This document shows positions 5,463 to 38,180 of a DNA stretch of 64,000 nt, piece by piece; the stretch's first letter is position 1, and each line of letters begins with the position of its first letter. The position numbers and the translations under genes were made by a program. Source of the stretch: a virus; IMG/VR virus record IMGVR_UViG_3300045988_141926, positions 64,380-128,379 of that record; one strand, 5' to 3'. The notes beneath the pieces are model-generated. The model worked only from the letters and a program-made list of their open reading frames with translations, did no database searches and had not been told where the DNA came from.

Positions 5463-6974
5463 ATGGCAAAAATTAAGCGTCCCACTCTGACTGTTAAATG
5501 TTCTCAGTTTGCGTTCGATGAACTGTTTGAGAAGTTTAATAAGGCAGTCAAGAGTAAGCAATATAAGAAGTTTGATTACGATGCTTGGTGTAAGATTCGT
5601 AAGACAATTAAGGAGCATTGTTCCAGAACTGATAAGACAATTATTCCGACTAATGTTCATTTCGATATTGATACAAATGAAGTATTAGTAGCTATTGGTA
5701 AGGAGGGTGTGGGATTTCAGTCTGACGATAAATCCTTCGGTCAGTTTCTTGCCAATGAGTGGACTCCTCGATTCATTACTGATGTTCTGATGAGTGGTAT
5801 TGAAGTAAGAGAAGTCAGTGATTATGTCATTTCTACGAAGCCTACTCCGACAGAGCAGACTTGGAAGGAAACAATGTGTGCTAATGATAGTTATTGTTAT
5901 AAGATTTACGTTAAACAGCGTGAGGAAATCAATAACTATTACAATGATGTAAATCAGCATTATGAAAAGATTTACACTGACGCTGATAAGTATAAGCCCA
6001 GTTATGCAACCGCTCAGCCCTCTAATTTGAGTTGGAGGGGCATTACAGGCGGTCCCATCGTAGATAATACTGCGACTAAGGCGACTACCAATACTGAGAA
6101 GCCTGATGGTTTTACTATTGATTGGAATGTGCCTACCAGCACTACTAAACCCATTACCAATGCTGTGAAGCCGGATAGTCTCACTCTTGATTGGTTTGCA
6201 ACTACAAGTAGCACGCCTATTAGTGCGGACGATTTGGGTTCTGTTGTTAAACTTAATACCAAGGCTGATGTTATCAAGTTCGAGCCTTGCGCTGACCAGG
6301 TAAACATTTGCTGTGATGACCTGTGTAAAAACTGTAAGAATTACGAAAAAAAGGATAATGAAGAAAAGGAGAATAAAATGAAGGGTTTCAATTTTGATTT
6401 CGGTAAGATTACCAACGATTCCATCCGTATGTCTATGTATGGTATGGCTGTTAAGAATGCCTCTGGTGTCTGGACTGCCTATGATAAGGGCACTGGCGAC
6501 CTGATGGACGTTGACGTGTTCAATTTCGATGGTTCCAATTTCCTGTTCAAGATGCCTGTGGCTATCAAGGACATTGCGGTGGGCGATGTCGTTATCCACG
6601 CACGCAAGCCTATGTTTGTGGTCAGCAAGACCGAGGCCGGCGACCTGGTTGCCATTGACCCCGTGGCTGGTGAGAAGAAGACTATTATGCCGACTCGCTC
6701 ACCTTTTGGATTTAATTTCTGTACTAAGATTATCTCCCTGTTTGATAACCTGATGGGCCAGACTCCTACCTCTGAGAACCCCTTCGGTAATCTGTGGATG
6801 CTGATGCTGATGGATGGCAAGTCCGATATGAAGGATATGCTGATTCCTATGATGCTGATGAGTCAGGCCAATGGTTCTACCAATGCGTTTAACCCTATGA
6901 TGCTGATGCTGATGAATGATGGCGATATGAAGGACATCGCCCTGCCTCTGATGCTGATGAATCAGGTTAAGTAA
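5463..6974 (+). CDS. hypothetical protein with C-terminal Met-rich tandem repeats (MLMLMxDGxxMKDM x3)
   Basis: 503-aa ORF; GGAGGAAGATA-ATG; repeats visible 6790-6960. Confidence 0.6.
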   Translation: MAKIKRPTLTVKCSQFAFDELFEKFNKAVKSKQYKKFDYDAWCKIRKTIKEHCSRTDKTIIPTNVHFDIDTNEVLVAIGKEGVGFQSDDKSFGQFLANEWTPRFITDVLMSGIEVREVSDYVISTKPTPTEQTWKETMCANDSYCYKIYVKQREEINNYYNDVNQHYEKIYTDADKYKPSYATAQPSNLSWRGITGGPIVDNTATKATTNTEKPDGFTIDWNVPTSTTKPITNAVKPDSLTLDWFATTSSTPISADDLGSVVKLNTKADVIKFEPCADQVNICCDDLCKNCKNYEKKDNEEKENKMKGFNFDFGKITNDSIRMSMYGMAVKNASGVWTAYDKGTGDLMDVDVFNFDGSNFLFKMPVAIKDIAVGDVVIHARKPMFVVSKTEAGDLVAIDPVAGEKKTIMPTRSPFGFNFCTKIISLFDNLMGQTPTSENPFGNLWMLMLMDGKSDMKDMLIPMMLMSQANGSTNAFNPMMLMLMNDGDMKDIALPLMLMNQVK

Positions 6975-7004
6975 TATATATCCCCCAGTTTGTTGATTTC
7001 ATCC

Positions 7005-7045
7005 CCAAAAATAAGGGTCTTACCTCTCGGCGGTAAGACCCTTAT
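7005..7045 (+). terminator. rho-independent terminator (AATAAGGGTCTTACC..GGTAAGACCCTTATT)
   Basis: 15-bp inverted repeat + T-run merging into -35. Confidence 0.65.
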
Positions 7046-7108
7046 TTGATTTTTTTATAAATTTATAATATAATATATATATAAGATGAAGAAAGGAAAT
7101 GATACAAA
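7046..7108 (+). promoter_or_regulatory. conserved phage promoter/leader
   Basis: TTGATTTTTTTATAAATTTATAATATAATATATATATAAGATGAAGAAAGGAAA. Confidence 0.6.
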
Positions 7109-8851
7109 ATGAATCTGTATGACGCCCTGACTACGGAAGATATTGACCTGATTCGTGCTTACATTGAGGCATATGGCGGTAAGAATGATGAGTATGATGC
7201 GACTGGTTGTTGCGTTCAGTCTATGCCGAACACGATGGCGCCGTGGGCAGAGGCTAAGGAGCGTCTCTACACGATGTTCGGTGAGCAGATTATTCTGAGG
7301 AAGTCCTTCAACTTTTCTAAGGGAGCTGATGAGCTGGCTGATGAAATCAATGAAGCTCGTTATCGTAGAGATGATAATGGCATCGCTAAGATGGAGGCCC
7401 TGATTCGTGAAAATTTCTGGATGCGGAGTAATTATTCCGCGTTGGGTCTAACTGACGAGGAAGCAGATAACATTACTCGTCTGGTTGATTCTTATATGCT
7501 GGCTAATAACTCTTGGAGCCGCTCTGAGTTCACTGTGAATGGCATTCGTGTGAATACCGGCGCCAAGGTTGTGAAGATTCTGGGTAAGATTCTCGCTACC
7601 TTTGAGAACCAGGAGTGGAATGAAATCTTCGAAGAGTTTCGTCTGGAACATTCTCGTATCCTCAATCAGAAGAAGCTGACTGGCGAACTGTGCCTGTCTA
7701 TTCACCCTCTGGATTTTATGACAATGAGCGATAATAACGAGGGTTGGGACAGTTGTATGAGCTGGCAGGCTTGCGGTGATTATCGTCAGGGCACCGTAGA
7801 GATGATGAACTCTCCTTGTGTCGTGGTGGCGTATCTGCGAAATCCCAACTATAAGATGGATATTCCTGATGGTCATTGGAACAGTAAGAAGTGGCGTTGT
7901 CTGTTTGTTGTTGACCGCGATGTTATTGTTAATATTCGCGAGTATCCCTATTGTAATGATGAACTGGTGGGCGAGTGCCTGAACTGGTTGAAGAGCCTGG
8001 CCGAGAAGAACCTTCATTATCAGTATCGTGATACTACCTGTCGGTATCGCGCTGATTGCGAGAACAGTGTTCAGGTTGGCGAGAAGAAAATTCCTGTGAA
8101 TTTTTCTACTGGTCATATGTATAGCGATTTCCGTTTTGAGCATCTGATGTATCTGAATGCCGCTCTGCCGGAGAAGATTGACATTTATTACTCTGGCGTG
8201 AGCGAGTGCCTGAGTTGTGGTAAGACTTCCAGCGGCTATGATGAAAGCCTCCTGAGTTCCAATGATTTGATTTGTCATAGCTGTAATGGCGATGGCGAGT
8301 GCGAAGAGTGCGGTCATTATTGTGATGCTGATGAATTGTATGAGGTTGAGGGTCGTTTGATTTGTCAGGATTGCTATGATAACGAGACTGCTGAGTGCCC
8401 GGCCTGTCAGCGTAATATTGACTTCTACAATTCCAAGTGTGAGGATTGGCGCGACCAATTGCCTGGTCCTGAGCGCCATTTCATCCATAGCGATAATACA
8501 TTTGAAATCGCGTTCAATGGCTATATCACTCATCTCCACTTTGATACTCTGTGTGAGTGTTGTGCTAAGAAGATTCGTTCTGGCGAAATCAAGGATTATG
8601 GCCCCGTTGAGCAGTTTGTTGATAAGTGGAACATTTCTCATACCTATCTGGATTTGGAGAAGATGACTGAGGACGCCGTTCAGGACGTTATCCCTTGGAA
8701 CGGTAAGGGCTGGATGAAGAATCGCAGAGACAATCCTAACCGCAGTTGGGTGAGTATCGAGAAGGGATATTGCGATTTTGATAAGGGTTATTTCGTTGAT
8801 GAAGATGGGAACGAAATCAAGAATCCTCACCCGCTCTTCTTCCCCAATTAA
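7109..8851 (+). CDS. hypothetical protein, family A (WNSKKWRCL / IPWNG motifs, Cys-rich zinc-ribbon C-terminus)
   Basis: 580-aa ORF; paralog of 11472..12935. Confidence 0.65.
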   Translation: MNLYDALTTEDIDLIRAYIEAYGGKNDEYDATGCCVQSMPNTMAPWAEAKERLYTMFGEQIILRKSFNFSKGADELADEINEARYRRDDNGIAKMEALIRENFWMRSNYSALGLTDEEADNITRLVDSYMLANNSWSRSEFTVNGIRVNTGAKVVKILGKILATFENQEWNEIFEEFRLEHSRILNQKKLTGELCLSIHPLDFMTMSDNNEGWDSCMSWQACGDYRQGTVEMMNSPCVVVAYLRNPNYKMDIPDGHWNSKKWRCLFVVDRDVIVNIREYPYCNDELVGECLNWLKSLAEKNLHYQYRDTTCRYRADCENSVQVGEKKIPVNFSTGHMYSDFRFEHLMYLNAALPEKIDIYYSGVSECLSCGKTSSGYDESLLSSNDLICHSCNGDGECEECGHYCDADELYEVEGRLICQDCYDNETAECPACQRNIDFYNSKCEDWRDQLPGPERHFIHSDNTFEIAFNGYITHLHFDTLCECCAKKIRSGEIKDYGPVEQFVDKWNISHTYLDLEKMTEDAVQDVIPWNGKGWMKNRRDNPNRSWVSIEKGYCDFDKGYFVDEDGNEIKNPHPLFFPN

Positions 8852-8943
8852 CTAGTTCAATATAAAGTGTTTTGATTTTTTTAAAAAAAAATTATATAAT
8901 ATATATGTAAGGTAAAGGAAGACCTTACAACAAAAATAAATTT

Positions 8944-9369
8944 TTGAAAGAGGTACATACTATGAAGACTACTGACCGCACTACTAAGCGTGATTTCTAT
9001 GAGGCTATTATCAAGGCTATGGAGACCGGCGAGACTGATATCGAGCCCACCAAGATTATCGAGTTCTGTGAGAACGAGATTGCCCTGCTGGATAAGAAGG
9101 CCGATAAGGCTAAGGAGCGCGCCGCAGCTAAGAAGGCCGAGGCTGACGAGCTGATGGATAAGGTGTATGCCGTCCTGAGCGACACCGAGTTTATGACTCG
9201 TAATGCTGTGATGGATGCTCTGGGCGATGTGCCCGAGGATGTGAGCATTGCCAAAGTTGGCGCTCGCCTGACTAAGCTGGTTGGCGCAGAGAAGGTCGAG
9301 AAGGCTGAGCAGACCGTGGCTAATGCCGAGGGCAAGAAGTCCAAGGTGATGGGGTATAGAAAAATCTAA
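8944..9369 (+). CDS. hypothetical Lys/Ala/Glu-rich protein
   Basis: 141-aa ORF downstream of promoter at 8872. Confidence 0.5.
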   Translation: MKEVHTMKTTDRTTKRDFYEAIIKAMETGETDIEPTKIIEFCENEIALLDKKADKAKERAAAKKAEADELMDKVYAVLSDTEFMTRNAVMDALGDVPEDVSIAKVGARLTKLVGAEKVEKAEQTVANAEGKKSKVMGYRKI

Positions 9370-9398
9370 TCGGGACACGCCGATTCTTGAATGAGGTT

Positions 9399-9427
9399 AG
9401 GATTTAATTCCTAACCTCATTTTTCTA
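9399..9427 (+). terminator. rho-independent terminator (GAGGTTAGGATTTAATTCCTAACCTC + T-run)
   Basis: hairpin + TTTTTCT. Confidence 0.6.
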
Positions 9428-9490
9428 TGGGTCTGCTCCGGGCGAGGTCGGGGGCAAAGACCGAAAACCTAAATCAAAATATGGCTTACT
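9428..9490 (+). ncRNA. conserved ~60-nt element (CTCCGGGCGAGG..GG..AAAGACCGAAAAyCyAAATCAAAAaTGG), copy 1
   Basis: near-identical copy at 39478..39545; both lie between a terminator/non-coding region and a promoter. Confidence 0.35.
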
Positions 9491-9561
9491 AATTTTTTGA
9501 CCAATTTATTGACATATATTAAAAAATATGCTATAATAAAAACAAAAAAGGATTTATTATA

Positions 9562-10374
9562 ATGAGATATTGTTTGAAATATATAAAAAATAAATATATC
9601 CAAGAGGCTGATGAAATTTTATTTGGAGATAATCACGGCGATTCGATGATTGACGCAATAGAACTATATCCTAACGCGGATTTTATTTATGAAGTCGTTG
9701 ATGAGCCTGATTGGGATTATTTAAAAATGATTAATAGCAGACTAAATAAAACTAATCGGCGTTTAATCATTTCTACTATGTATACTACAATCGCCCAAAG
9801 CGCAAAGGAAAATGGATTGGCATTTTATTTTTCCTTCGCAATTAATAATTTCGCAGACTTACAAACAGTAAACGAACTGGGTGCTTGCTATGCGCTAATT
9901 ACTGCGCCAATTTTTTTCGAGCAAGACAAATTGGAAAAATTTTCCATTCCGATTCGTTATCGTGCTAATGTAGCATATAGTGGATATTTAACTACCAAGC
10001 GCGTGAATGCGAATGCCGCGTTCATTCGACCTGATGATGTAGAGTTTTATGACAACGATACAACAACTATTGAGTTTGGTGCGTCCAGTAGTGAACAAGA
10101 AGAAGTTTTATATCGTTTATATAAATATGATAAAACTTGGCCGGGCGATTTGAATATGGTAATTACAACTCTTAATGTCGAGCCCGCGCCGATGAATCGA
10201 ATGATTGGGCCAGACTTCGCCAAACATAGATTGAATTGCGGTCAACGATGCGTAGAAGGCGATACACTTCAATGCCATTTGTGCCATAACCAAATGTCAT
10301 TAGCAGTTCCATCTAAAATCAAGAATTATATAGACAATGTAATCTTGCCTGTTAGAACAAATGACCAAAATTGA
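9562..10374 (+). CDS. hypothetical protein
   Basis: 270-aa ORF, lower GC, promoter TTGACA-16-TATAAT at 9510..9537. Confidence 0.5.
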   Translation: MRYCLKYIKNKYIQEADEILFGDNHGDSMIDAIELYPNADFIYEVVDEPDWDYLKMINSRLNKTNRRLIISTMYTTIAQSAKENGLAFYFSFAINNFADLQTVNELGACYALITAPIFFEQDKLEKFSIPIRYRANVAYSGYLTTKRVNANAAFIRPDDVEFYDNDTTTIEFGASSSEQEEVLYRLYKYDKTWPGDLNMVITTLNVEPAPMNRMIGPDFAKHRLNCGQRCVEGDTLQCHLCHNQMSLAVPSKIKNYIDNVILPVRTNDQN

Positions 10375-10431
10375 CAATTTTATTTAAATATTATATAATA
10401 TTTATATAAAATAAGAAAGGAAGATTGATAG

Positions 10432-11472
10432 ATGCGAGTGATGAAAGACTCTGAGTATCTGGCATTCAAGCAGTTAGCCAAGCTCACCCAAGAGCAGATG
10501 ATTAAGGCTATGCGCGCCGTGTTAGAATCTCGTTATACAGATATTATCGCAACAAAGGAATATATTGTAGCCAAGGGAGATATTCCTATCGGATTAGTCG
10601 CCCATATGGATACAGTATTTCCGCTTCCTCCTACTGAAATTTATTATGATACTACACAGAATGTTGTGTGGAGTCCGCAGGGTCTTGGAGCTGATGACCG
10701 CGCTGGTATATTCGCGATTCTTCAAATTTTGAAGACCACAAAACTGCGTCCGCACATTATTTTAACTACCGATGAAGAGAAGGGCGGATGGGGCGCATAT
10801 GCGCTTGTTGAACAGCATCCAGAGTTTCCATTTGGTGATTTGAAATATCTGATTCAGCTGGATCGCCAGGGCGCGAATGATTGTGTGTTTTATGATGGTA
10901 TCAATGAAGATTTTATTCGTTATGTGTCTTCTTTTGGTTTCGTAGAGCATATTGGTTCATTTAGCGACATTAGTATTCTGTGTCCATTCTGGGATGTGTG
11001 CGGTGTCAATCTTTCTGTCGGTTATAAAAATGAGCATAGTCTCATTGAAACATTAAATATTAGCCATTTATTCGATACCATCCAAAAGGTGAAGAGAATG
11101 TTAATGGTGAAGACTATCCCTGACTTTGAGTGGAAGGAAAAATACTATCCTTATTTTACCAATGGGTATCCTCTGGATGATGATATCGACGAATATAGCG
11201 CGGCTTATGGTTATAATTGGGTAAATGATAGGCGTTCTGTCGATGCTTATACTGTAATTTGCCATAATTGTAAGAAGCCATTTTATAATTATGAAACGTT
11301 CCCCACTAAGAAAATTGATGGCGGAACTATGTTCTTGTGCCCCGATTGTGTGGGCGACCACGCTAATTGGTGTGATTGTTGCGGTGAAGCATTCGAGCGT
11401 ACGCCGGAAAATGCCGGGGCCACTATTTGCCCTGACTGTGCGAAAATTGAGAAGATTAAGGTTAAAGGTTAA
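10432..11472 (+). CDS. M28/M20-like zinc metallopeptidase domain protein with C-terminal zinc ribbons
   Basis: HMDTV, GADDRAGI and TTDEEKGGWG motifs resemble the metal-binding motifs of M28/M20 peptidases; four CxxC pairs at C-terminus. Confidence 0.45.
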   Translation: MRVMKDSEYLAFKQLAKLTQEQMIKAMRAVLESRYTDIIATKEYIVAKGDIPIGLVAHMDTVFPLPPTEIYYDTTQNVVWSPQGLGADDRAGIFAILQILKTTKLRPHIILTTDEEKGGWGAYALVEQHPEFPFGDLKYLIQLDRQGANDCVFYDGINEDFIRYVSSFGFVEHIGSFSDISILCPFWDVCGVNLSVGYKNEHSLIETLNISHLFDTIQKVKRMLMVKTIPDFEWKEKYYPYFTNGYPLDDDIDEYSAAYGYNWVNDRRSVDAYTVICHNCKKPFYNYETFPTKKIDGGTMFLCPDCVGDHANWCDCCGEAFERTPENAGATICPDCAKIEKIKVKG

Positions 11473-12935
11473 TGAAGAGTTATAATTTAGATGAACTAAA
11501 ACAGCAAGTTAAACACGTATTAGAGTATAGTCAGGATATCCAGGATGTGAGCGAGGACGCTCTTGATAATATGATGAATGAATGGGAGCGCAATAAAGCC
11601 CGATTCATTAATGATTATATGGGCGGTAAACTCATTATGGAGCTGCCAGGTAAGCGTTCCTTCCATTTGGGAGAAAAGGCAAAAATTAAGAAATACAATG
11701 ATTTCTTGGATTATGTCGCCCTGCGAATGAATAATTATGAACTGTGTCGATTTATTGAGACACAGGGTGAAGAAGCATTCTATGAAAATACGGTGAAAAC
11801 TGGTTGGGATCATACTAAGAGTGATACATTTATTTCACCGGGGTCTAAACTAATACGAGCATTTAAATATTTCATTGAAGATAAGGATTTGCTGGAAACT
11901 GTCCAGAATGAGGCCAGTCGCATTATTCAGGGAGACTGTATCGAGGGCATCCTCTGTATATCAGTACATCCTCTTGATTATCTTAGTCTGAGCGAAACCA
12001 CATATAATTGGCGTTCTTGCCACGCTCTCGATGGTGAATATCGTGCTGGTGATTTAAGTTATCTAATGGATGGCAGCACATTTATCTGCTATTTGAGAGG
12101 CGATGACAAACAAAAACTCCCTTCATTCCCCGATGATTTGCTCTGGAATAGTAAGAAGTGGCGTTGTTTGGGCTTCTTGGCTGATGATAAAAATGGTATT
12201 ATTATGGGGCGCCCATATCCCTATGAAGCCACAGATATTATTGATGAACTTCGTTGGGAAGTGTTTAATAGAAACTGGGATTTGGGCCTTGGGAGTTGGC
12301 GCGCAGACGCCATTCGTTCGGTTCAAGACCGCTTAACTAACTGGGATGAAGATTTGAGCCGTACTTATATCCCTTGGAATGGCCGTCTTGTAGAACTTGA
12401 TAAAACTGTTCATGATTGTCCAAGTCCTACTCATTATAATGATATTCTTTTATCCAGTTGTTATTTGCCTATTTATGCTCGTAGTAAAGGATATTTTGGT
12501 AAGAATGACTGGAAGAAGGTTCAGTATCATATTGGACACTCAGTAATGTGTATCCATTGTAATTCTGAGTATGTATCTCCTGGTGATGGCACAATGATGT
12601 GTCGTTCTTGTGAGATTAGATATGGCAATTCTGACAGTGATGATATTGTTTATTGTGAGAATTGCGGTTGTCGTTTATGGTATGAAGATGCTGTTATCGT
12701 TGGGGATAATGGAAATTATCTTTGTGATGAATGCGCTAGTAGAATCACTAAAACTTGTAGAGATTGCGGTAATCCATATTACATTGATGATTTAACATAT
12801 CATAAAGACGATGAAGATGAAAATGGCGGATATTATCTGTGCGGATGGTGCGAGCAAGATAGACAGGACACGGGAGAAATCGCAGAAAATGAATCTTCTA
12901 CTACTACCATAAGTTTTGATGAGTTTGATTTGTAG
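11472..12935 (+). CDS. hypothetical protein, family A paralog (WNSKKWRCL / IPWNG motifs, Cys-rich C-terminus)
   Basis: 487-aa ORF sharing motifs with 7109..8851. Confidence 0.6.
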   Translation: MKSYNLDELKQQVKHVLEYSQDIQDVSEDALDNMMNEWERNKARFINDYMGGKLIMELPGKRSFHLGEKAKIKKYNDFLDYVALRMNNYELCRFIETQGEEAFYENTVKTGWDHTKSDTFISPGSKLIRAFKYFIEDKDLLETVQNEASRIIQGDCIEGILCISVHPLDYLSLSETTYNWRSCHALDGEYRAGDLSYLMDGSTFICYLRGDDKQKLPSFPDDLLWNSKKWRCLGFLADDKNGIIMGRPYPYEATDIIDELRWEVFNRNWDLGLGSWRADAIRSVQDRLTNWDEDLSRTYIPWNGRLVELDKTVHDCPSPTHYNDILLSSCYLPIYARSKGYFGKNDWKKVQYHIGHSVMCIHCNSEYVSPGDGTMMCRSCEIRYGNSDSDDIVYCENCGCRLWYEDAVIVGDNGNYLCDECASRITKTCRDCGNPYYIDDLTYHKDDEDENGGYYLCGWCEQDRQDTGEIAENESSTTTISFDEFDL

Positions 12936-13053
12936 TCATTAAATACAAGACCTATATATTATATACACGATGAAAATGGCGAATGGATACCTATTACGCG
13001 AGTGCGTCAAATACCTCCGCCAGAACGTGAATAATTATTTAAATATTTAAGGA

Positions 13054-13353
13054 GTGATTGTTATAGCACGCGGAAGTATTGCGAAGGAAAATGTCGCCAA
13101 GGTGCTTGCCGAATCATTCGGTAAGGATTGGATTGGCGAGTCTGATAAGAAGTATTATGTTTGGGCTAATGATGGTGGTGAGCGCGTTCAAATCGCTATT
13201 AGTCTAACCTGTCCAAAGAATCCAGTAGGAGCAGCAGTATCTCCTACCAGTAATGAAATCAATTTTGAGGCCGAGCCTGAAAGACCTGTAATGGAGATTA
13301 CTCCTGATGAACAGGAAATGATTGACAGACTTAAGGCTGAATTGAATCTTTAA
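13054..13353 (+). CDS. hypothetical protein
   Basis: 99-aa ORF. Confidence 0.4.
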   Translation: MIVIARGSIAKENVAKVLAESFGKDWIGESDKKYYVWANDGGERVQIAISLTCPKNPVGAAVSPTSNEINFEAEPERPVMEITPDEQEMIDRLKAELNL

Positions 13354-13432
13354 TATAATGAGATAAGTCATTTGACTTATCTCTTTTTTTTTGTTATAAT
13401 TTAAATAGAATTAGATTATAAGGAGATTTAAA

Positions 13433-14134
13433 ATGTATAATCAAATTATTGAAGAATTAGAAGCTCTTAAATAGCATTTTGATGATGAAGATATTGTATC
13501 ATATCAATTACTCTTAATTAAAATTAAGAAAATTATTGATTTAATTAATGATAAACAACTTGAGGAAGCAGATAAAGGCAAATTATCTAATTATATTCGA
13601 GATTATTTAGCAAGTTTGCATTTAAATAGAATTTTTACAATTTCTGATTTAAATGAATTATTTATTCCAGAAGTGAAAGATTTAGATATTGGTAATAAAA
13701 ATATTTATATTACAATTTTTAATTTATTCGTGGAAGAATTATCTGATGTAGATAATATTTTTTCTCAAAAACTTAAATATTGTATTACAAATATGATTTC
13801 TAGAATTGCTACTTCTGTGGATGAAGCAATGATCGCAGAAGATAAAACTCAAGAAACTGTAGTTAGTGAACCTGTTCAAATTATTCCAACTATAAATACA
13901 GTAAATACTAATTCATTCGATTTGGATATTGATATTACTAATAAAAATTATTTGAAAGAATATATTATGCGTAAAAATTTAAAACCTTATAGATGTGATA
14001 TTTGTGGATTAAGTTCTTGGCAAAACAATCCTCTTATGCTATATTTATATAGTAAAAATCATATTTATTCAAATAAAAATTTAGAAAATCTGATGTTTTT
14101 ATGCCCTAATTGCTATTCTCAGATTGGAGAGTAA
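13433..14134 (+). CDS. HNH endonuclease (TAG read as sense; 1 in-frame TAG)
   Basis: C-terminal CDICG..WQ..NHIYSNKNLENLMFLCPNCYSQ HNH motif; frame continuous with ORF 13616..14134 through TAG at 13472. Confidence 0.55.
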
Positions 14135-14137
14135 TTT

Positions 14138-15325
14138 ATGTATTATAATTCTTATAATTAGAATTATTTTAATGGATTAAATAAAATATTCAATAAATTT
14201 GATACTAATAATATTAATGATTATTATAATTTATTAAAATTAATATATGATATATATTTTAATGAAAATGTATTTATAATTGTTAATGATGATATAAAAT
14301 ATCAATTAGAATCAAATTTAAAATTACTTATTAAAAAAAATAATTGGTTTATAGATTTTGAACAAACTGAAAAAAATATATTAATTTCATTATTTATTAT
14401 AATTACTTAGAAAATTAATTTTGGAAATTATTATCAAATTAATAATACATTAAAACAATAGATTGAATCATTATTATTAGATAAAAATTTAATTAATGAA
14501 AAAATGATTCATGATAGTAAAAATGTTTTTCATTTAGTTGATAGTTTTCCTGAAAATGAAAGTATGATTAAATTTTTTAAGCAATATAATATTGATATTA
14601 TGAATTAGGAATTTTTAACTATTGGTGATACAAAAATTCCTAATTTTTATTTAAAACAAAAAAATAAAATGATAGATCATTATTATGAATTTTGTCATTT
14701 ATTATTTAAAATTTATAGTCCAATTTTATATTATGGTGTTTCATTTGAAGAAGGATATGAATATAAAATAACTGATAAAGATATTGTATTCGATTGTGGC
14801 GGAAATATGGGACTATTTGCGCTATACTGTGCTTCAAAAGGCGCACGAGTATATTGTTTTGAGCCTATGTCTTATATTAGAGATTTTTTATATGAGAGTC
14901 AAAAATTATATCCTGATTTAATCCATATTATTCCTTGTGGAGTGTCTAATAGAAATTAGGAACAATATTTTTCTCAAACCTATAATCCAGGAGCTGGATC
15001 GAATTCAATATTTCATGAATTAGAATATACATCTGATAGATTATATAAAGAAAAATGTAAGTTAATTACATTAGATTCATTTAGTTAGAATAATCATATT
15101 GTTCCTACATTTATTAAAGCAGATATTGAAGGGTCTGAAGCACAAATGCTTGAAGGCGCTTCACAAATTTTACAAACATATAAACCAACTATGAATATTT
15201 GTTTAAATCATCGGATGGAAGACCAATATAATATTCCTACCCTTATTTATAATACCAATTCTAATTATTCATTTTATTATTTTATTGAAGGAGAAATACA
15301 TTCTAAATTTGTATTGTGTAAATAA
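14138..15325 (+). CDS. FkbM-family methyltransferase (several in-frame TAG)
   Basis: VFDCGGNMGLFALYCASKGARVYCFEP and KADIEGSE motifs typical of FkbM MTases; same frame as ORF 14669..14959. Confidence 0.5.
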
Positions 15326-15327
15326 AT

Positions 15328-16281
15328 ATGCCAAATATTATTTTAACAGAATATTGTAATCTTCAATGTCCTTATTGTTTTGCTAGTAAAATGATTGAAG
15401 AAAAAACAGATAATACAAAAAATATTTCTATTGAATAGTTAGATAAAATTTTAAAATGGTTATTACCTTCAGCAACGAATTTAGATCGGATTGGATTAAT
15501 TGGAGGAGAACCCACTTTACATCCTTAGTTTAGAGAGATATTAGGTAGAATAAATTCATTTAATGAATTTACAAATACTTCTTCAATAGTATTTACAAAT
15601 GGAATTAATTTAAGTGAATTTTTATCTACTATTGGACCAAATATGTCAATTTTAATTAATGTAAATAAATTGACTGGTAAATCATTAAATAAACTTAATA
15701 GTGTATTAGATGAAATTAATTATTTAAGTTGGTTTAAAATTGATAAAGTTATTTTAGGATGTAATTTATACCAAAATGAAAATAATTATTCTTATTTTTG
15801 GGATGTAGTTGATAAATATCCAGATATTTCAAGAATAAGAATGTCTATTACTGCACCCAATAGCAAAGAATTAAAAGCAAATAAAGAATTGTATTATACT
15901 ATTATGAAACCTATATTATTACAATTTTTAGAAGAAACTAAAAAACGTGATATAAAAATTTCATATGATTGTAATTAGATTCCGTTATGTTTATTAAACA
16001 ATGAAGAATAGGATTTAGTAAATCAATTAGGGGAATTAAATAGTTTTTGTGAACCCGTTATAGATATTACTCCAGATTTTAAAGCTACTTGCTGTTTTGG
16101 TGTTTATGATAATCCTATTCAATGTAATGATTTTAATAATATCGAAGAATTAACTAGATATTTTAAAAATCAAATAGTAATAAAAACTATAAATAATAAC
16201 ACTTCCATGTGCAAAGATTGTAAAAAATTACAACTTGCTCAATGTCAAGGAGGATGTTTATCATTTTCTAATGTTGGGTAA
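15328..16281 (+). CDS. radical SAM protein (CNLQCPYC CxxxCxxC; 4 in-frame TAG)
   Basis: N-terminal MPNIILTEYCNLQCPYCFA; GGEPTLHP; C-terminal Cys cluster (CKDCKK..CQGGC) suggests an auxiliary-cluster domain. Confidence 0.6.
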
Positions 16282-16339
16282 GTATAAGTAATAAAGTTTT
16301 ATAATTTTTTAATTCTAAAAAAGAAGGAGGAATTTTTTT

Positions 16340-16777
16340 ATGGCAAATATTACTTATGAATTAATTTTTAAATTTACTTCTGGTAAAGAGGTAAATTTTA
16401 TTGATGAAGAACATACATTTTCTATTGTAGAAGATTATCGTTCTCCAGTTCTTTTAACCCCTCAAATGTTTGGTATTGATGATTTACGTGAGTATTATGC
16501 ATTATTATTAATTGATGGCAAACCTATGGAAGATTATGCATCAAATTATTGTAATTTTAAAAATTTTGGTAATTCTATTGTTGATTTGCTTAATAATGAA
16601 GATACTATTTCAGAAATTATTTTAAGAGATACTAATACTAAAGGAGAATATTTCCATATAAACTCTGATCAATTAGTAGGCATTGAAGCCGGCGGAGGAA
16701 CTGATAGAGGTTTTGATAATATAATGGTATATCGTATACAAATTTATTATAAAAAAGTTGGAAAAATAGGTGAGTAA
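16340..16777 (+). CDS. hypothetical protein
   Basis: 145-aa ORF without TAG. Confidence 0.45.
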   Translation: MANITYELIFKFTSGKEVNFIDEEHTFSIVEDYRSPVLLTPQMFGIDDLREYYALLLIDGKPMEDYASNYCNFKNFGNSIVDLLNNEDTISEIILRDTNTKGEYFHINSDQLVGIEAGGGTDRGFDNIMVYRIQIYYKKVGKIGE

Positions 16778-16779
16778 TA

Positions 16780-17400
16780 ATGGGAGCTAATGCTACATCT
16801 GTAGGTACTTTAGTTAAATTATCTGATTTAGATGCATTATATTTACGTTTATATAATTTAAAAGTAGCTCATATTAATGATGCAGATTAGATTAATAAAT
16901 CTGCTCTAACGGTTCCAGCTCAAAGCAGTGGATTAACACGAGGTAGTAAAGTAGAAGTTTCAACTGCTAAAATTGCAACATTAAAATCTGAATTGGCAAA
17001 TTTAGCTCAATCAAAATGGTATCAATCTGACACAGCAAATACTGTAGTAACAATGACAGATTTTAGTACAAATATTAAAGTACCTAATGTAGGAGATTTA
17101 TTAAAAAGCGTAGATTTTAATCTAATTGAAACTGCAATCACTTCTGCAGAATAGATTATTCCTACTTATTCAAATAAATATAATGCTCGTTATAGTTTTT
17201 GTTATAGTGGTCATTATACCTCTGATTATGGTACTTGTTATGATGCTCGATATGGTACTTGTTATAGCAATTGTTATAGTAATCGTTATAGTACTCGATA
17301 TGGTACTTGTTATAGTTGTTATGGTTGTTATGGTTGTTATCGCAGATATAGCTCAAGGTATGGTAGATATGCTGCAAAAAATGTTCAAATTAGATGTTAA
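16780..17400 (+). CDS. precursor-like protein with Cys/Tyr-rich repetitive C-terminus (YGTCY, CYGCYGCY repeats; 2 in-frame TAG)
   Basis: frame from ATG 16780 read through TAG gives ...YSFCYSGHYTSDYGTCYDARYGTCYSNCYSNRYSTRYGTCYSCYGCYGCYRRY...; flanked by radical SAM genes. Confidence 0.45.
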
Positions 17401-17411
17401 AGGTGAATTAA

Positions 17412-18848
17412 ATGTTAATAAATAAATTAGATTTAATGGGATCCAGCAGCTGTGATTTAAAATGTTCTTATTGTTATATTACAAAAAATTGTTCATTTTA
17501 TAATTATGATTCCGCCGTTCAAGAAGCTTGGGAAACTGGATCTTATTTAACTACTATTAAACAAGTTTTTTCGAAATTGGATGCAGACCCTACTCAAATA
17601 AAAGATTTAGAATTTTGGGGAGGAGAACCTACATTACATATTAAAGAAATGGCTTCTCAAGGAAAAGCATTAGGATAGTTATTTCCAGAAGTTGATTTTG
17701 TATTAATCCCAACTAATTGGTATTAGATTAATATGCAAGCCTTAGTAGATTTTATTTACAATTTTAATGATGGTATCTCTCCTCGTGGAAGTAAATCAAA
17801 AAATGTTAATTTTCATTTACAACTATCCATTGATGGGCCTCCTGGAGATTTTAATACTTATGGTCATAAAGTACCTTGGGATATCTATAAAAAACAATTT
17901 GATGATTTTTGTTTTTATTTAAAAGAAAAAGAAAATTCTGGAAGAGAATTAAAAAATATTAATATTATTTTCGCTATTAGTGGAACCTCTTAGCAAAAAT
18001 ATATTTTAAAAAATTTAAATACTTTAGATAAAATAAAAGAATTTCAAGAATATATTAAAAAAGTTTGTAAATATGTAAATGATGAACTAAAACAATTTAA
18101 AACTATAGATATATTTTTAGGAACTCCAATTTGGACTCCTACGGTAGCTATTCCAGATTCGACAACCACTGAAGAAGCATTAGAATTAAATAAAATTGCA
18201 CTAATGTTAGAATATAGTGATTATGTTAATGGAATAAAACCTTATAGTATTGATGCTAATGAAATTCAAGGTTTTCATGCAACTTATGGAGAATTAAATG
18301 TATTGGACAGAAATCACGAATGTCCAGAATCTAATGAACATGCAATTACATTAATGCCTGATGGAACTATAGCTGAATGCCCTTGTACTTTTTTATAGAA
18401 TTTGGATTCTTATAAACAAGAATTATTAAATAATAAATAGTATTGGGAATATAAATCTTGCTTAATTAGAGACGGTAGTTTTTATAATCCATTATTAGGT
18501 GATGAAAAACTTGATAATTACCATAGTTGGTATGTTTATGGTGGTGGATTTATTGGGACTAATTCTACTTATGCTAATTTAAATTTAAATATGGCTTATG
18601 AAATGGCTTTATCAAGATAGATTGATTATAACTATGCATTAAATCCAGAGTTATTAATGAGACATTATATGGCTATTTTTACAACTGCTGAATGCTATCG
18701 TGAAAATGTTAATGTGACTCATAATCATTTTTTAACAGACCATAACATGTTTAGGCGTTGGTATAATGGTTATGCTGAATTAGGATATAAAGATCATCGA
18801 GAGAAGATTAAAAAAATTATGGAAAATGTATTAAAAGGAGAAAATTAA
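17412..18848 (+). CDS. radical SAM protein (CDLKCSYC; ~7 in-frame TAG)
   Basis: ORFs 17412/17733/18204/18657 all in frame 0 separated only by TAG; GGEPTLH motif. Confidence 0.55.
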
Positions 18849-20032
18849 TGTTAGTACAAGAACAAGATAATCTCTTACTGCGAGATATAATAGAACGTAA
18901 TTATTATACATTTTTTCGTAAGGATGAGTATGTAAATAAAAATTTAAATATTTCTTTTTTCTATGATAATGATTATACTGATTATAAAATTATTCCTAAT
19001 TATGAGTCATTAGAAGATAAAAATGCTAACTTTGAATAGATTTATAATAATTTTAAATTATTTTTAAATTATTATAAAAGCCAAGGATTTAATGCTAATA
19101 TTAACATTCATGATGATAAATTTTTTGATAATTTTGAATTAAATTTATCACTATTTAATTTAATTTATGAACAAGAAATTAAATTTAAATCATTAAACTT
19201 TTATATTAGTTTATATAAATTTGAAGATTTAAATTCTCTATTTAATAAAATTAATATATTAAACAATAAATTTCATATAAATTTTGTTTTTAGCTTACTA
19301 ATTTCTCAAATTAATTTATTTAAAAATCAAGATATTAATAATTTAAATTATAAACTAAATATTTTAATTCCTCCACAAATGCCTTCAGAAGAATTAATAT
19401 TTAATTAGAAAATAATTGATAGTAATAATTTTAATATTGATTAGTATATTGAAGTTGATTCTGATTTATGGACTATCGAAGCGATAGAGGATTATTTAAA
19501 ATATTTAAATTACTTAATGGATAATTTAAATGATTTAAATGAAATTTTCTTTACAAATTTACCTATTGCTTTACAAGATTAGCATATATTAGATAATACA
19601 AATTGTAAGAAAAATTGTGATTTTCAAAATTCATTAAATGTTTTGATAGCAGATTTAAGCATTAATTTATGCCATAAATTTCAATTTAAAGATTTAATTA
19701 TTGGTAATTATATATATAATGAAGAAAATAATAAATTAGAAATTGTAAGTAAAAATCTTCCAACGATAATATTAGGTGCGCATTTAAAACGTTCTAGCAC
19801 TCCTCATTGTGAAACTTGTTCTTATGTTAATATATGTCAAGGCTTTTGTTTTATGCGTTCTTATTTAAAATGCTATAATCCTATTATACCCATTCAGGAA
19901 AGTTGCTTATTAAAAAAAATAAAATATAATTTTATTTTTAATAAATTAAAAAATCAAAATTTTAATATTGATAATAATTTAATTATTTCAGATTTATATA
20001 AGCAATATTTATATCAAATCTTAAAACATTAG
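18848..20032 (+). CDS. hypothetical protein with C-terminal Cys motif (CETCSYVNICQGFC), possible SPASM-like partner (TAG-containing)
   Basis: ORFs 18848 and 19643 in same frame joined by TAG codons. Confidence 0.4.
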
Positions 20033-20045
20033 GGAGGGGAAAATA

Positions 20046-20315
20046 ATGTATTTACCAATACATAATAATTATTATTATTTATTAATTAATACTCCTCTTA
20101 CTTATCCAATTTGTTTAGATGAAGAAGAAGCTTTAGCTTATTTAAAATATATTAATCGAGATGACTATCAATATAATAATATTGCTAATTATGATGTTCT
20201 TGATTATGAAAAAATAATATATATTGAAGTTTCTTTCCCAAATAATGAAGAGATTCAAAAATTACTTACTAAAATTAAAGATAATATTGCAACTGGTTAT
20301 GCATTAAGAAATTAG
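20046..20315 (+). CDS. hypothetical protein
   Basis: 89-aa ORF, GGGAGGGGAAAATA-ATG. Confidence 0.45.
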   Translation: MYLPIHNNYYYLLINTPLTYPICLDEEEALAYLKYINRDDYQYNNIANYDVLDYEKIIYIEVSFPNNEEIQKLLTKIKDNIATGYALRN

Positions 20316-20364
20316 TATAAAAATCGTCTTTTTGATTTTAGCAATTATAAAGAGGAGCGGCTTT

Positions 20365-21768
20365 ATGAACCTTCAAGCGCCAAATATTGTGGATTGCCAA
20401 GAGATAACTTGTGATATGATAGAAGATTATCTTGCTAAACGATACCAATAGCAAGTATTAAAAACAAAGTTTCCTTTTGATGTAGAAATACAATTAATTT
20501 TAGCTAGAAATTGTAATTTAAACTGTACTAATTGTTAGGCTGGTTGTAATATTAATGATAAAAATGAATTAATGACATTAAATGAGATTAAATATGCTAT
20601 ACCTAAATTAAAAGAATTTTTCCAAGATAAAATTTTGTAGATAGTTTTATTTGGTGGAGAACCATTATTAAATCCAGAATATGAAGAAATTTGCTATTAT
20701 ATACGAAGTGAATTACCAGAAGTCTCAATAGATATTTATACTAATGGCATCCTTAAATAGAATTGGACTGAAGAAGATTATGAATTTGCAGTGAAAAATG
20801 AAGTGCATTTTACCCAAAGCTTATATCCATTAGGAGAATCATATTTTAATAATACTTAGAAACAAGAAGAATTAATGACTAAATTAGGTATTAAACATGA
20901 AATATGTGGAAATCGTCCTTTTTTTATTAAAGGAGGTTATAATAAAACAGGAAGTTCAAATCCAAATCGTTTTTTTCAGTGTTGTCATTCAATGTTTCCC
21001 CCTCATTTTTATTTATTTAAAAAATAGTTATGGCGATGCGCGCCAACATTAAGCTGGGATAAAATTAATATTCCTTGTTTCCCAGAAGATTATTTAAATA
21101 TTGATAATTTGACAGAAGAACGTTTTATTGAATATTGTAGCAAACCATTAAAAATATGTAAATATTGTGGAAACTCAGATGAATTAGGATTTGGAAGTGA
21201 TGAAATAATAACTTGGCATCATTAGAAAGATTTGCCCAGTAATTATGATTAGACTTTATATGATTTATATATAAATAATTATAAATTATATTATAAGTAT
21301 GTCCATGATTGCAAAACTATTCTTCCTTGTTTTGATAATTAGTATTTTATAGATAATATTAAAGCAGAGGATTTGCCTTCTCATCCAAGTATAATGTTTT
21401 TAAAAAAATTTAAAACAGGATTAGGAGATGTATGTATCCCATTTGATAAAGAATCTTGTTAGGATATAAAAAATTTATTAAAATTTAAAAAATTAATTTT
21501 AAATTAGAATAATTATTTAAATATAAATTTTTATTTTATTTCATTAGATGGAAATAAGCCAGCGAAATCTATTATTTATCGAATGTTTCCTCCCGCTTCT
21601 TGTGATTTAGAAGGGAATATTTATTTATTAGAATCAGACAATCCCAATAATTTTTATCAAATATTTTTACAAAATAGTTATTTAAAAAAGAAAATCTGTA
21701 TTTTAAACTATAAAGATTTATTAGATAAGAATTATTTATCAAATAAATTTAATGAAATGGATGGTTAA
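20365..21768 (+). CDS. radical SAM protein (CNLNCTNC; many in-frame TAG)
   Basis: AGAGGAGCGGCTTT-ATG; VLFGGEPLLNP; frame continuous to ORF 21583..21768. Confidence 0.5.
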
Positions 21769-21771
21769 TAA

Positions 21772-31145: not shown

Positions 31146-31673
31146 ATGGAAATTGAGCGTAAATGGCTTCTGAATAGTTTGCCTAAAAATTTAACATTTT
31201 GGGATCATTATACTACTATTGAGCAAGCATATTTAACGATTGAGAAGTTTAGTGATGTAATCACCAAGGAAGTGCGGGTTCGTAAAAAGACAACCGCAGA
31301 TGGTGAGACAGATTATAAACTGGCCTATAAGATTGGTAGCGGCCTTGTCCGTGAAGAAATTGAAACTCCTATCACTGAGGACTTCTGGAAGGAATGTACT
31401 AAGCATGTTATTCCTATCCATAAGAAATATTATACTGAAACTTGTAAATGTCTGCATTATAAGGATGATGATCTTACTCAGACATTTACAGTAGAGTTCA
31501 GTGAAGTCGATGGTGGCGAGTTCTATTATGCGGAAGTAGAATTTGATTCTATTGAAGACGCAAATCATTTCAATTTCCCTTATCCTAGTTTGGTGATTAG
31601 AGAGGCCACTGATGATGATAGTGTTCGTATGGCCAACTATTGGATGAAAACAGCATATCGTCGCATGGGCTAA
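31146..31673 (+). CDS. CYTH-domain (triphosphate tunnel metalloenzyme) protein
   Basis: N-terminal MEIERKWLL = ExExK signature of CYTH/CyaB-ThTPase family; AGGAGGATAATA-ATG. Confidence 0.55.
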   Translation: MEIERKWLLNSLPKNLTFWDHYTTIEQAYLTIEKFSDVITKEVRVRKKTTADGETDYKLAYKIGSGLVREEIETPITEDFWKECTKHVIPIHKKYYTETCKCLHYKDDDLTQTFTVEFSEVDGGEFYYAEVEFDSIEDANHFNFPYPSLVIREATDDDSVRMANYWMKTAYRRMG

Positions 31674-31681
31674 AAAATGAT

Positions 31682-31756
31682 GCCCTGGTAGTTTAATGGT
31701 GCGAACGGGGGACTTATAATCTCTTGATGGAAGTTCGATTCTTCCCCGGGGCACCA
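31682..31756 (+). tRNA. tRNA-Ile(TAT)
   Basis: GCCCTGG..GTTT-AATGGTGC-GAAC..GGGGA-CTTATAA-TCTCT..GGAAGTTCGATTCTTCC-CCGGGGC-A-CCA. Confidence 0.6.
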
Positions 31757-31832
31757 TTAAAAGACTCATACAGCAATTTTTGCTTGTTAAGCACTCACCT
31801 TTTAAGTGAACTATAAAATGAGTCTTGTATAT

Positions 31833-31908
31833 GTCCCGTTAGTCTAATTGGATAAAACGTTGGGTTTCTACCCCATATTTGAGAGTTCGAATCTTTCACG
31901 GGATGCCA
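31833..31908 (+). tRNA. tRNA-Arg(TCT)
   Basis: GTCCCGT-TA-GTCTAATTGGATAAAAC..TTGGG-TTTCTAC-CCCAT..GAGAGTTCGAATCTTTC-ACGGGAT-G-CCA. Confidence 0.7.
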
Positions 31909-31932
31909 TTAAATTAAATAAGGAGTGTCTCT

Positions 31933-33108: not shown

Positions 33109-33149
33109 AATAAAGGCGAAAACAGCAATTTGTTTTTTGATAGGGAACT

Positions 33150-33225
33150 ATTTGTTGAAGGTTCGAGTCCTTCTTCCCGCAACATATGCGGGGATAGCTC
33201 AACTGGTAGAAGCGATAGTATAAAA
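33150..33225 (+). tRNA. tRNA 3' half (GAAGGTTCGAGTCCTTC-TTCCCGC-A) followed after 6 nt by a tRNA 5' half (GCGGGGA-TA-GCTCAACTGGTAGAAGC): possible permuted or fragmented tRNA
   Basis: acceptor strands complementary (6/7 plus G:U) but in reversed order. Confidence 0.3.
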
Positions 33226-33244
33226 AAAATTTCGCCTTGTATAT

Positions 33245-33321
33245 GCGAGTGTAGCTCAGTAGGTCAGAGCAGTGTGCTGATAACGCAAAGGTCGGTGGTT
33301 CGAATCCACCCATTCGCACCA
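33245..33321 (+). tRNA. tRNA-Ile(GAT)
   Basis: GCGAGTG-TA-GCTCAGTAGGTCAGAGC..GTGTG-CTGATAA-CGCAA..GGTGGTTCGAATCCACC-CATTCGC-A-CCA. Confidence 0.75.
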
Positions 33322-33394
33322 TAGGATAAAACTTATTAATTGTCTATATTCAATTCTTAAAATATATAGAAATATGTTTTAAGGAGGTAGAATT

Positions 33395-34198: not shown

Positions 34199-34214
34199 TT
34201 TGGAAAAAAGATTA

Positions 34215-35480: not shown

Positions 35481-35481
35481 T

Positions 35482-36030: not shown

Positions 36031-36078
36031 TATAATATTTATATAAGATGAAGGAAGGGAAAAATCTTCCTTCAATAT

Positions 36079-36154
36079 CCGGGTGTAGCTCAGTTGATAG
36101 AGCGCGGCATTTGGGATGCTGAGGCCGTGAGTTTGAGTCTCACCACTCGGACCA
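36079..36154 (+). tRNA. tRNA-Pro(TGG)
   Basis: CCGGGTG-TA-GCTCAGTTGATAGAGC..CGGCA-TTTGGGA-TGCTG..GTGAGTTTGAGTCTCAC-CACTCGG-A-CCA. Confidence 0.75.
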
Positions 36155-36892: not shown

Positions 36893-36911
36893 GTAGAAAG
36901 GAATGAATTAA

Positions 36912-38177: not shown

Positions 38178-38180
38178 AAA

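Follow-up and report, generated by a model that had tools for sequence, protein, structure and literature searches.

What does a large phage make with radical S-adenosylmethionine (rSAM) enzymes that are encoded beside a protein ending in a long, regular tyrosine repeat? The question is raised by a stretch of 64,000 nucleotides (positions 64,380 to 128,379 of the IMG/VR virus record IMGVR_UViG_3300045988_141926; hereafter the window, numbered from its first letter), in which an earlier note had pointed to a recoded island resembling the clusters for RiPPs (peptides synthesized ribosomally and modified post-translationally). To our knowledge, nearly all examples of dedicated rSAM maturation of ribosomal peptides or proteins come from bacteria and archaea. 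The answer that we favor, and regard as probable though well short of certain, is that the phage carries a system making an rSAM-matured repeat protein. Its substrate would be a 206-aa protein with a tyrosine-rich C-terminus (the tail protein, 16780-17400), and the enzyme best tied to this substrate is the rSAM protein encoded immediately downstream (rSAM2, 17412-18848) together with its SPASM partner (18848-20065), not the upstream rSAM1 (15328-16281).

By its look the window is a fragment of a large phage genome, with 26 tRNA genes (26727-43592, all on the + strand) and matches to phage RNA-ligase, peptidase and methyltransferase families. Across 14-26 kb the G+C content (GC) drops from ~40% to ~21%, and with the standard code the open reading frames (ORFs) of this region are fragmentary; the internal stops of the claimed frames are solely TAG (2-12 per gene, no TGA or TAA), i.e., the frames are open only on TAG readthrough. 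TAG is read as glutamine here, as in genetic code 15, which follows from four independent observations. The tRNA array includes a suppressor with the anticodon CTA (38777-38850, + strand), required for translation of the operon; of 29 genes checked throughout the window, none has TAG as its stop; in three of the five TAG-changing codons that distinguish the window from a 96% identical relative (an IMG/VR contig of 197.7 kb, compared over 6778-25288), TAG is exchanged with CAA or CAG; and in the distantly related locus L006 TAG codons occupy the Q slots of a (Y-x-Q)n repeat, e.g., YTqYNQYSqYSQ. Read in this way, the recoded island is real, all frames claimed in it are open, and 13433-25172 is a single low-GC array of abutting or overlapping genes on the + strand, that is, one co-directional, tightly packed operon.

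The tail protein comprises an N-terminal domain (the N-domain, residues 1-125, 16780-17154, + strand) and a C-terminal repeat (residues 126-206 and the stop codon, 17155-17400, + strand) of the form (Y-x-x-x)13 and then (Y-x-x)n, with 19 Tyr and 9 Cys. Tyrosines occupy positions 130, 134, ..., 178 (13 consecutive spacings of 4) and then 181, 184, 187, 190, 194, and 197 (spacings of 3, 3, 3, 3, 4, and 3); shuffling the tail 200,000 times never reached 13 spacings of 4, and the Cys/Tyr repeat described in the earlier note is in this respect confirmed. Cysteines 141, 153, 161, 165, 177, 180, 183, and 186 stand at the last position of repeat units. A protein search retrieved 57 full-length homologues (46-98% identity), all metagenomic and none named, and in their alignment the ~125 residues of the N-domain, the junction I-x-P-x-Y-S-N-K-Y and every repeat Tyr are kept, while the x positions vary, the tail length changes by whole repeats, and a single Cys column, C177, is nearly invariant. 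No repeat Tyr and no Cys differs in the 96% identical relative. The conserved feature is the periodic aromatic residue and not the Cys/Tyr pair. The Tyr frame is the translated one: it is continuous with the N-domain, fits the packing of the genes (it begins at 16780, right after the stop at 16777, and the next gene begins at 17412) and shows the best ratio of synonymous to non-synonymous changes among the six frames (15:12 in the N-terminal part and 4:8 in the tail, vs. 1:14 in the other + frames).

Structures were modeled with the close homologues P0001 (98%) and P0058 (92%). The models present the N-domain as helical (three long helices and a small hairpin; predicted local distance difference test, pLDDT, 65-84) and the tail as disordered (pLDDT ~30). 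A fold search with the N-domain gave no meaningful match, and the tail protein has no model in Pfam, NCBIfam, PHROGs or PADLOC, where just two weak sub-threshold matches were obtained (phrog_9648 'tail protein', E 0.002; PADLOC DruH, E 0.0028). We propose that the N-domain is a recognition ('leader-like') domain and that the C-terminal repeat is the substrate region.

rSAM2 (478 aa, 6 TAG, + strand) has the cluster motif CDLKCSYC, scores just 17.3 bits with PF04055 and contains three invariant extra cysteines, C304, C323, and C428, which are twitch-like (N_Twi_rSAM 28.1 bits vs. 170). Comparison with the 96% identical relative reveals 16 synonymous changes and one non-synonymous change, i.e., strong purifying selection. 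Nearest to its structure model (pLDDT 90) are SPASM enzymes that modify peptides and proteins (TigE, ChlB, anSME, CteB, and SuiB). Predicted viral structures gave weak matches only (template modeling score, TM, <0.5), to phage proteins with the generic names 'Fe-S oxidoreductase/AslB', and the sole JGI automatic name of rSAM2 relatives is sulfatase maturation enzyme AslB. PDB sequence searches returned nothing for rSAM2 and rSAM3 and just SkfB (E 5e-4) for rSAM1. The partner (405 aa, 5 TAG, + strand) carries the SPASM motif CETCSYVNICQGFC with the exact Cx2Cx5Cx3C spacing, at 24.3 bits against the TIGR04085 cut-off of 27. The SPASM-like Cys motif ascribed to it in the earlier note is present in the sequence; its gene, given there as ending at 20032, extends to 20065, because TAG at 20030 is read through, and is then followed by the gene of a 122-aa protein (20046-20414). 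The CxxxCxxC motif of the partner is lost in the clade of the window and intact in loci L006, L007, L008, L012, L016, L027, L030, and L033.

The same association is found in distant viruses. A pattern scan of the viral collection retrieved 110 relatives, 80 loci were fetched, and 88 loci, all metagenomic, were compared altogether. The partner gene lies directly 3' of the rSAM2 homologue in 86 of the 88 loci, and in 44 of them an N-domain ORF, recognized by an iterated profile, ends at the start of the rSAM gene. These 44 loci show what is expected of a RiPP cluster, namely a precursor gene adjoining the enzyme, with a conserved N-domain and a hypervariable tail. Contigs with tail homologues of 46-56% identity have the order FkbM, rSAM1, ~140-aa protein, tail protein, rSAM2, ~400-aa partner, ~120-aa protein, rSAM3; loci with 24-34% rSAM2 identity have the same N-domain protein 5' and an intact rSAM-SPASM partner (with CxxxCxxC) 3'; and rSAM2 homologues down to 21% identity come from metagenomes only, often from contigs of 140-250 kb. 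The gene order thus recurs in very divergent phages despite quite different tail sequences. All tails of the surveyed loci are low-complexity (S 17%, N 15%, T 11%, G 11%, Y 7%, C 5.5%, F 4%), reach 368 aa and place an aromatic residue, Cys or His every 3-8 positions among S/N/G/T, in units such as YGSR, YSQ, NFSS/NFTS, GWSQGANGN, CSNSAHSQ, SNGTx, and SYDSS. The (Y-x-Q)n tail of L006 has no repeat Cys, and those of L007 and L008 are rich in Gly, Ser, Asn, and Asp, with scattered Tyr, Cys, and His. The conserved core consists of the tail protein with its ~125-aa helical N-domain, rSAM2 and the rSAM-SPASM partner. The genes for FkbM, rSAM1, an HNH-like protein, a 145-aa protein and GT8 glycosyltransferases are confined to the clade with Tyr-periodic tails, and rSAM1, FkbM, rSAM3, and GT8 are clade-specific add-ons.

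A family profile of diverse members finds at least 346 clusters (90% identity) at E<=1e-10, and a profile search of 1.84 billion representatives gave 12 relatives at E<=1e-30, along with many low-complexity Tyr-rich false positives aligned to the tail columns only. Scanning the GTDB species genomes (bacteria and archaea) with rSAM2 patterns revealed no relatives; tblastn of rSAM2 and of the L030 and L016 members against 50,697 phage records returned only one match of 29% coverage, in Ralstonia phage RSP15; and full-text literature searches (phage-encoded rSAM RiPPs; recoded phages with rSAM) brought up no account of this system. Uncultured large metagenomic phages commonly carry the module, and for them the statement that such clusters are not typical phage cargo is wrong; the family is large and diverse and seems to be restricted to phages.

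The 96% identical relative carries a 4-kb insertion (L012 5013-9031) that is absent from the window, where the corresponding place (40245-41053) spans ~0.8 kb. It encodes a 275-aa protein with a Gly/Ser/Asn/Cys tail, a 466-aa rSAM, a 458-aa rSAM-SPASM protein and a 96-aa protein; a second copy of the module was searched for in the window and none was found, the relative alone possessing one. Since the insertion is present in one and absent from the other of two such similar genomes, the core can be regarded as a self-contained, dispensable cassette. Homologues of the 122-aa protein (20046-20414, + strand; motif YDxxDYEKIIYIE, no match to any family) lie 3' of the partner gene in 12 loci, including the minimal four-gene cassette of L012, and this protein is possibly an accessory or chaperone, in the place that HxsD has in the bacterial HXS defense system.

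Post-translational modification best explains why the tail, hypervariable and periodic, is strictly coupled to two dedicated rSAM-family proteins and why the fold of rSAM2 is nearest to those of peptide- and protein-modifying enzymes. According to the mechanism that we propose, rSAM2 would bind the N-domain as if it were a leader, with assistance from the partner and the 122-aa protein, and would modify every Y-x-x(-x) unit in an iterative fashion. As the likeliest reaction we envisage hydrogen abstraction followed by cross-linking of the Tyr ring to a residue 2-3 positions away (cyclophane-type), or, where Cys fills the fourth position, formation of a Cys thioether, and the outcome would be a rigid, protease-resistant, poly-macrocyclic tail. 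rSAM1-SPASM, rSAM3, FkbM, and the three GT8 proteins might perform tailoring, e.g., O-methylation or glycosylation of Tyr, Ser, and Thr hydroxyls. Such a system is also consistent with the occurrence of FkbM and rSAM1 only where the tails are Tyr-periodic and with the YcaO-family genes (PF02624) inside the clusters of L002 (1135-2928) and L006 (4945-6741), which are absent in the window; YcaO is a family of peptide-backbone enzymes, and its presence is a hint that some versions involve backbone chemistry (azoline or thioamide). As to the product, a protein is favored by the size and conservation of the ~125-aa N-domain, by tail lengths reaching 368 aa and by a core with neither peptidase nor exporter; it may be a matured protein as in HXS and not a small peptide. 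We speculate that it stays on the N-domain and serves, as matured HxsA does, as an accessory effector when the phage is in conflict with its host or with other phages.

The reading of the Tyr tail as a post-translationally modified repeat is strengthened by another system in the window. A member of the CXXX-repeat peptide maturase family, reportedly defined in silico by Haft and Basu in 2011, is encoded at 48205-49518 (TIGR04115, 411.4 bits vs. 350), so the phage carries what is by this score at least one bona fide repeat-peptide maturase. Beside it lie the genes of a 98-aa protein (47905-48201) and of a 233-aa C-x-x-x repeat protein (49526-50227; TTG start, 3 TAG; Cys at 130, 134, ..., 166 and further C-x-x-x runs). 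Standard ORF calling splits or misses the gene of the 233-aa protein. The layout of this protein is that of the tail protein, the repeat starting at residue 130 in both, and a profile comparison of the two N-domains detected no homology.

Several points weigh against our interpretation. Scores of rSAM2 with curated peptide-maturase models lie far below their cut-offs (PapB 23.6 vs. 340, XyeB 12.5 vs. 450, HxsB 15.5 vs. 370), and no operon protein has a Pfam match to a RiPP recognition element (RRE)/PqqD domain; an RRE is not present in every RiPP class. In this clade the partner is devoid of the rSAM cluster motif, with the SPASM cysteines kept, and the ancestral two-enzyme mechanism cannot operate unchanged after this loss; the partner may now be a scaffold, and rSAM1 or rSAM3 may supply the lost activity. 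The surveyed loci share ancestry, which means that counts of co-occurrence are not counts of independent events. rSAM1, rSAM3, GT8, and FkbM could act on a sugar or a small molecule rather than on the tail. Finally, what reaction takes place, which residue is modified and what becomes of the N-domain are all inferred here.

A more detailed version of the same idea is that phage-specific mobile cassettes (N-domain with periodic tail, twitch rSAM, rSAM-SPASM, small protein) give rise to poly-cross-linked effectors, a viral counterpart of HXS with a role in conflict, whose Tyr version is additionally methylated and possibly glycosylated at Tyr by GT8, with new enzyme and substrate families and probably new Tyr cross-link chemistry. 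Taken with all its parts, this version is tentative, and we would not be surprised to see it fail.

The best surviving competitor, although in our estimate unlikely, is a classical small RiPP, in which the N-domain is a long leader (NHLP/Nif11-like), the tail contains the core or cores, and a peptidase frees small Tyr-derived products, antimicrobial or cofactor-like (as mycofactocin, pyrroloquinoline quinone (PQQ) or TVG), that are released at lysis. The bipartite conservation of N-domain and tail and the conserved junction between them agree with it, as do the YcaO genes of L002 and L006. Mycofactocin tailoring involves a glycosyltransferase and a methyltransferase, both of which have counterparts in the operon. 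Peptidases are also encoded nearby (an M20/M28-like enzyme at 10432-11472 and papain-like C1 enzymes in L002 and at ~33.4-34.2 kb of the window), and multiple small products were proposed for TvgA (PMC9062424). However, the confidently helical N-domain of ~125 aa is no short leader, the tails reach 368 aa, the conserved core includes neither peptidase nor exporter, and a terminator-like site parts the M20/M28-like gene from the operon. The scores with MftC (24.5 vs. 265) and PqqE (23.1 vs. 381) are low, too.

It is improbable that the tail protein is a virion component, i.e., a fibre, decoration or adhesive protein which rSAM cross-linking and glycosylation harden or make sticky. The weak match to the phrog_9648 'tail protein', a Tyr/Gly/Ser composition like that of structural and adhesive proteins, and the neighborhood in two relatives (in L006 a 2551-aa protein and a baseplate-like Gp10_C gene precede the cluster, and L026 has a 1415-aa fibre-like ORF upstream) are in favor of it. 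The TAG-rich genes, moreover, can be translated only with the suppressor tRNA, and in such phages recoded codons concentrate in late genes. In the window, however, no structural genes flank the operon, and the minimal cassette, being present or absent between 96% identical genomes, is dispensable.

We give very little credence to the view that the enzymes act on a non-protein substrate (a nucleotide sugar, a DNA or tRNA base, a cofactor) and that the repeat protein is a mere neighbor. GT8 and FkbM enzymes usually act on sugars or small molecules, and viperin, MoaA, and QueE are among the best sub-threshold NCBIfam matches of rSAM1 and rSAM3; in phages, rSAM enzymes are known to take part in DNA hypermodification (PMC8989533). 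But the nucleic-acid and cofactor matches cover only the N-terminal core and are far below the cut-offs (at best 51 vs. 180 for viperin and 50 vs. 284 for MoaA), none of the operon rSAMs reaches an NCBIfam equivalog cut-off (peptide maturase, nucleic-acid or cofactor), and a PADLOC scan likewise gave only matches to the viperin N-terminal core. Classification as QueE, ribonucleotide reductase activase and the like, which could have overturned the prediction of the earlier note, is not what the scores indicate. Besides, rSAM2 and its partner adjoin the tail protein in dozens of loci that contain neither glycosyltransferase nor methyltransferase, and this alternative stands for rSAM1, rSAM3, GT8, and FkbM only. 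As for the fear that the Tyr/Cys frame is a mere DNA tandem repeat or that another frame (17126-17425 on the + or 17162-17377 on the - strand) is the real one, both alternatives are open in the window and in the relative and the DNA repeats with periods of 12 and 9, but TAY/TGY-rich DNA has no stops in those frames, which explains their openness, and the N-domain continuity, the substitution ratio and the Tyr retained in 57 homologues down to 46% identity leave this possibility practically negligible.

The remaining genes of the operon frame this core. Upstream of it, a terminator-like hairpin (13360-13383, + strand) and an overlapping promoter-like site (13372-13400, + strand; 11 of 12 matches, with a TG extension), both consensus matches only, make 13360-13400 the probable operon boundary. 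The operon starts at 13433, upstream of the FkbM gene, with the gene of a 233-aa protein (13433-14134, + strand) whose C-terminus has an HNH/zinc-finger-like motif (PHROG HNH, E 3e-15, residues 168-231); homologues of this gene occur in 10 loci, immediately 5' of the FkbM gene in L002 and L006. The FkbM methyltransferase (14138-15325, + strand; 395 aa, 6 TAG) was identified correctly in the earlier note (TIGR01444 69.3 bits, cut-off 37.7; PF05050 39.3, cut-off 22.7). rSAM1 (15328-16281, + strand; 317 aa, 4 TAG) contains CNLQCPYC and, at the C-terminus, a SPASM-like variant Cx2Cx7Cx3C recognized from sequence; it scores 43.7 bits with PF04055 (cut-off 29.5) and matches phrog_1802 across residues 4-310. 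Both rSAM1 and rSAM2 are placed as described in that note, except that between rSAM1 and the tail protein lies the gene of a 145-aa protein (16340-16777, + strand; 0 TAG), with homologues solely in L001-L005 and L013 and no matches in Pfam, NCBIfam, PHROG or PADLOC. rSAM3 (20365-21768, + strand; 467 aa, 11 TAG; CNLNCTNC), predicted earlier as a third rSAM, scores 45.7 bits with PF04055; like rSAM1, it combines the CxxxCxxC motif with a passing score, the motif being absent from the partner.

Among the three predicted GT8 proteins, that of 24447-25172 (+ strand; 241 aa, 5 TAG; DxD motif WLDADT) passes PF01501 (28.1 bits, cut-off 24.3), and the other two, its paralogues with 67% and 36% identity, are recognized by a sub-threshold match or paralogy. 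One is a 379-aa protein (23306-24445, + strand; 8 TAG; DxD motif FIDADV), assigned by paralogy only (36% identity to the other two GT8 genes, E 1e-23 to 1e-26). The other (21772-23313, + strand; 12 TAG) is a fusion in which the GT8-like domain (PF01501 22.7 bits, residues 291-377) follows a Cys-motif domain of ~270 aa (..CxxxCxG..H.W.. / ..QDRGWPT..; 21772-22600). Of the 88 loci, 39 have this DRGWPT domain, encoded 3-4.5 kb downstream of the rSAM pair; it matches nothing in Pfam or PDB, has a separate gene in L002 (12534-13361) and L006 (13108-14773) and is probably another conserved component of the system. A peptidase-U32-like assignment of the domain was dropped, as Pfam (to E 1) and a PDB profile search gave no support.

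Over the window as a whole, in-frame TAG codons cluster in the low-GC islands 14138-25172, 33.4-36 kb and 47.9-50.2 kb, where a gene may have as many as 12; genes with ~40-47% GC have none, yet TAG terminates no gene anywhere, as if the islands were drawn from, or evolving like, a separate TAG-rich and AT-rich gene pool. The islet at ~33395-36030, the third of this kind, encodes a papain-like peptidase (~33.4-34.2 kb; catalytic GSCVPH present), a 421-aa rSAM (34215-35480, 9 TAG) and a formate/nitrite-transporter-like membrane protein (35434-36030). The peptidase is a homologue of the papain-like peptidase (PF00112) that the L002 cluster also contains and the rSAM a homologue of L002 14088-15341; in L002 both genes form one contiguous stretch with the main cluster. 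At the other end of the main island, an HNH-endonuclease-like gene without TAG (25381-26013; PHROG 15471/5018) lies in a stretch (~25289-26026) absent from the relative and looks like a mobile homing-endonuclease insertion. Upstream of the operon, two paralogous large proteins (phrog_18912; 7109-8851 and 11472-13034) with Cys-rich, zinc-ribbon/RING-like C-termini flank the M20/M28-like peptidase gene, an arrangement kept in L003. The DNA of 5463-8851 has no matches among deposited phages, and relatives of an 830-aa protein (51247-53739) were found in deposited phage records only in LR756500, LR756501, and LR756503, unannotated 'huge phage' genomes of 462-735 kb (41-42% identity).

In general, the RiPP-like reading of the earlier note is partly supported: a ribosomal substrate with dedicated rSAMs follows RiPP-like logic, with the emphasis shifted from cysteine to the Tyr periodicity, to rSAM2 with its partner and to a module common in phages. 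At least 346 enzyme clusters and 110 viral contigs are involved, for which we found no curated model, deposited phage genome or literature description. Since the operon depends completely on TAG as glutamine, standard gene callers and RiPP miners cannot see it, which may be why it was overlooked. Long periodic repeats with Tyr, Phe, Trp, Cys or His every 3-8 residues would represent a natural library for iterative radical cross-linking chemistry.

How does the system compare with those already known? The sactipeptide, ranthipeptide and SCIFF systems (CteB, PapB, ScfB), to which the note had looked for thioether chemistry, differ in that Cys is not a conserved target here: one tail column (C177) is near-invariant and L006 has no repeat Cys, which weakens the thioether reading. 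PapB scores are 23.6-35.7 vs. 340, and no SCIFF match was obtained. With TIGR04115 the system shares a period-4 repeat substrate adjoining an rSAM-SPASM maturase, and the Cys in the Tyr tail keep in register with the fourth position of the repeat; in contrast, rSAM2 scores 15.3 bits vs. 350, and Tyr, not Cys, is invariant.

Iterative modification of four-residue TVGG repeats, yielding poly-cyclopropylglycine, is known for the TigE relative TvgB (PMC9062424). The TvgA/TvgB/TigE systems (PDB 8vpo) show 12% sequence identity, are bacterial, target Val in TVGG and use a short precursor without a 125-aa domain. The enzymes of triceptides, or three-residue cyclophanes (XyeB, YhhB, ChlB, MicB; PMC12912966, PMC11002830), of which ChlB is a multiple-cyclophane synthase (PMC12912966), act on aromatic-X-X motifs comparable to Y-x-x(-x) in the window and to Y-x-Q, F-x-S, and W-S-Q in the relatives, a resemblance of motif only. 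In the tail protein, however, the period is mostly 4 and the motifs are far more numerous, and the scores are low (rSAM2: XyeB 12.5 vs. 450, YhhB 13 vs. 445; rSAM3: YhhB 34.6 vs. 445).

The closest known architecture is that of the bacterial HXS antiphage system, in which the repeat effector HxsA is accompanied by the rSAMs HxsB and HxsC and the small HxsD and cannot function without rSAM-dependent maturation (PMC13128918). What the two systems share is architecture alone: the sequences show no detectable homology (HxsB 15.5-29.8 vs. 370, with 15.5 for rSAM2; HxsC 29.2 vs. 268 for rSAM1), HXS has five H-x-S units instead of ~18 Y-x-x-x units, a peptidoglycan-binding domain and a signal peptide were not found, and the Tyr-tail system is encoded by a phage and has extra tailoring enzymes. 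The parts list is nevertheless the same: a protein, as opposed to a short peptide, that combines a folded domain with short tandem repeats, accompanied by a pair of rSAM-family proteins and one of ~100 aa. If the cassette reading is true, this would be the phage counterpart of HXS, and the parallel suggests that in their conflict phage and bacterium alike make use of matured repeat proteins.

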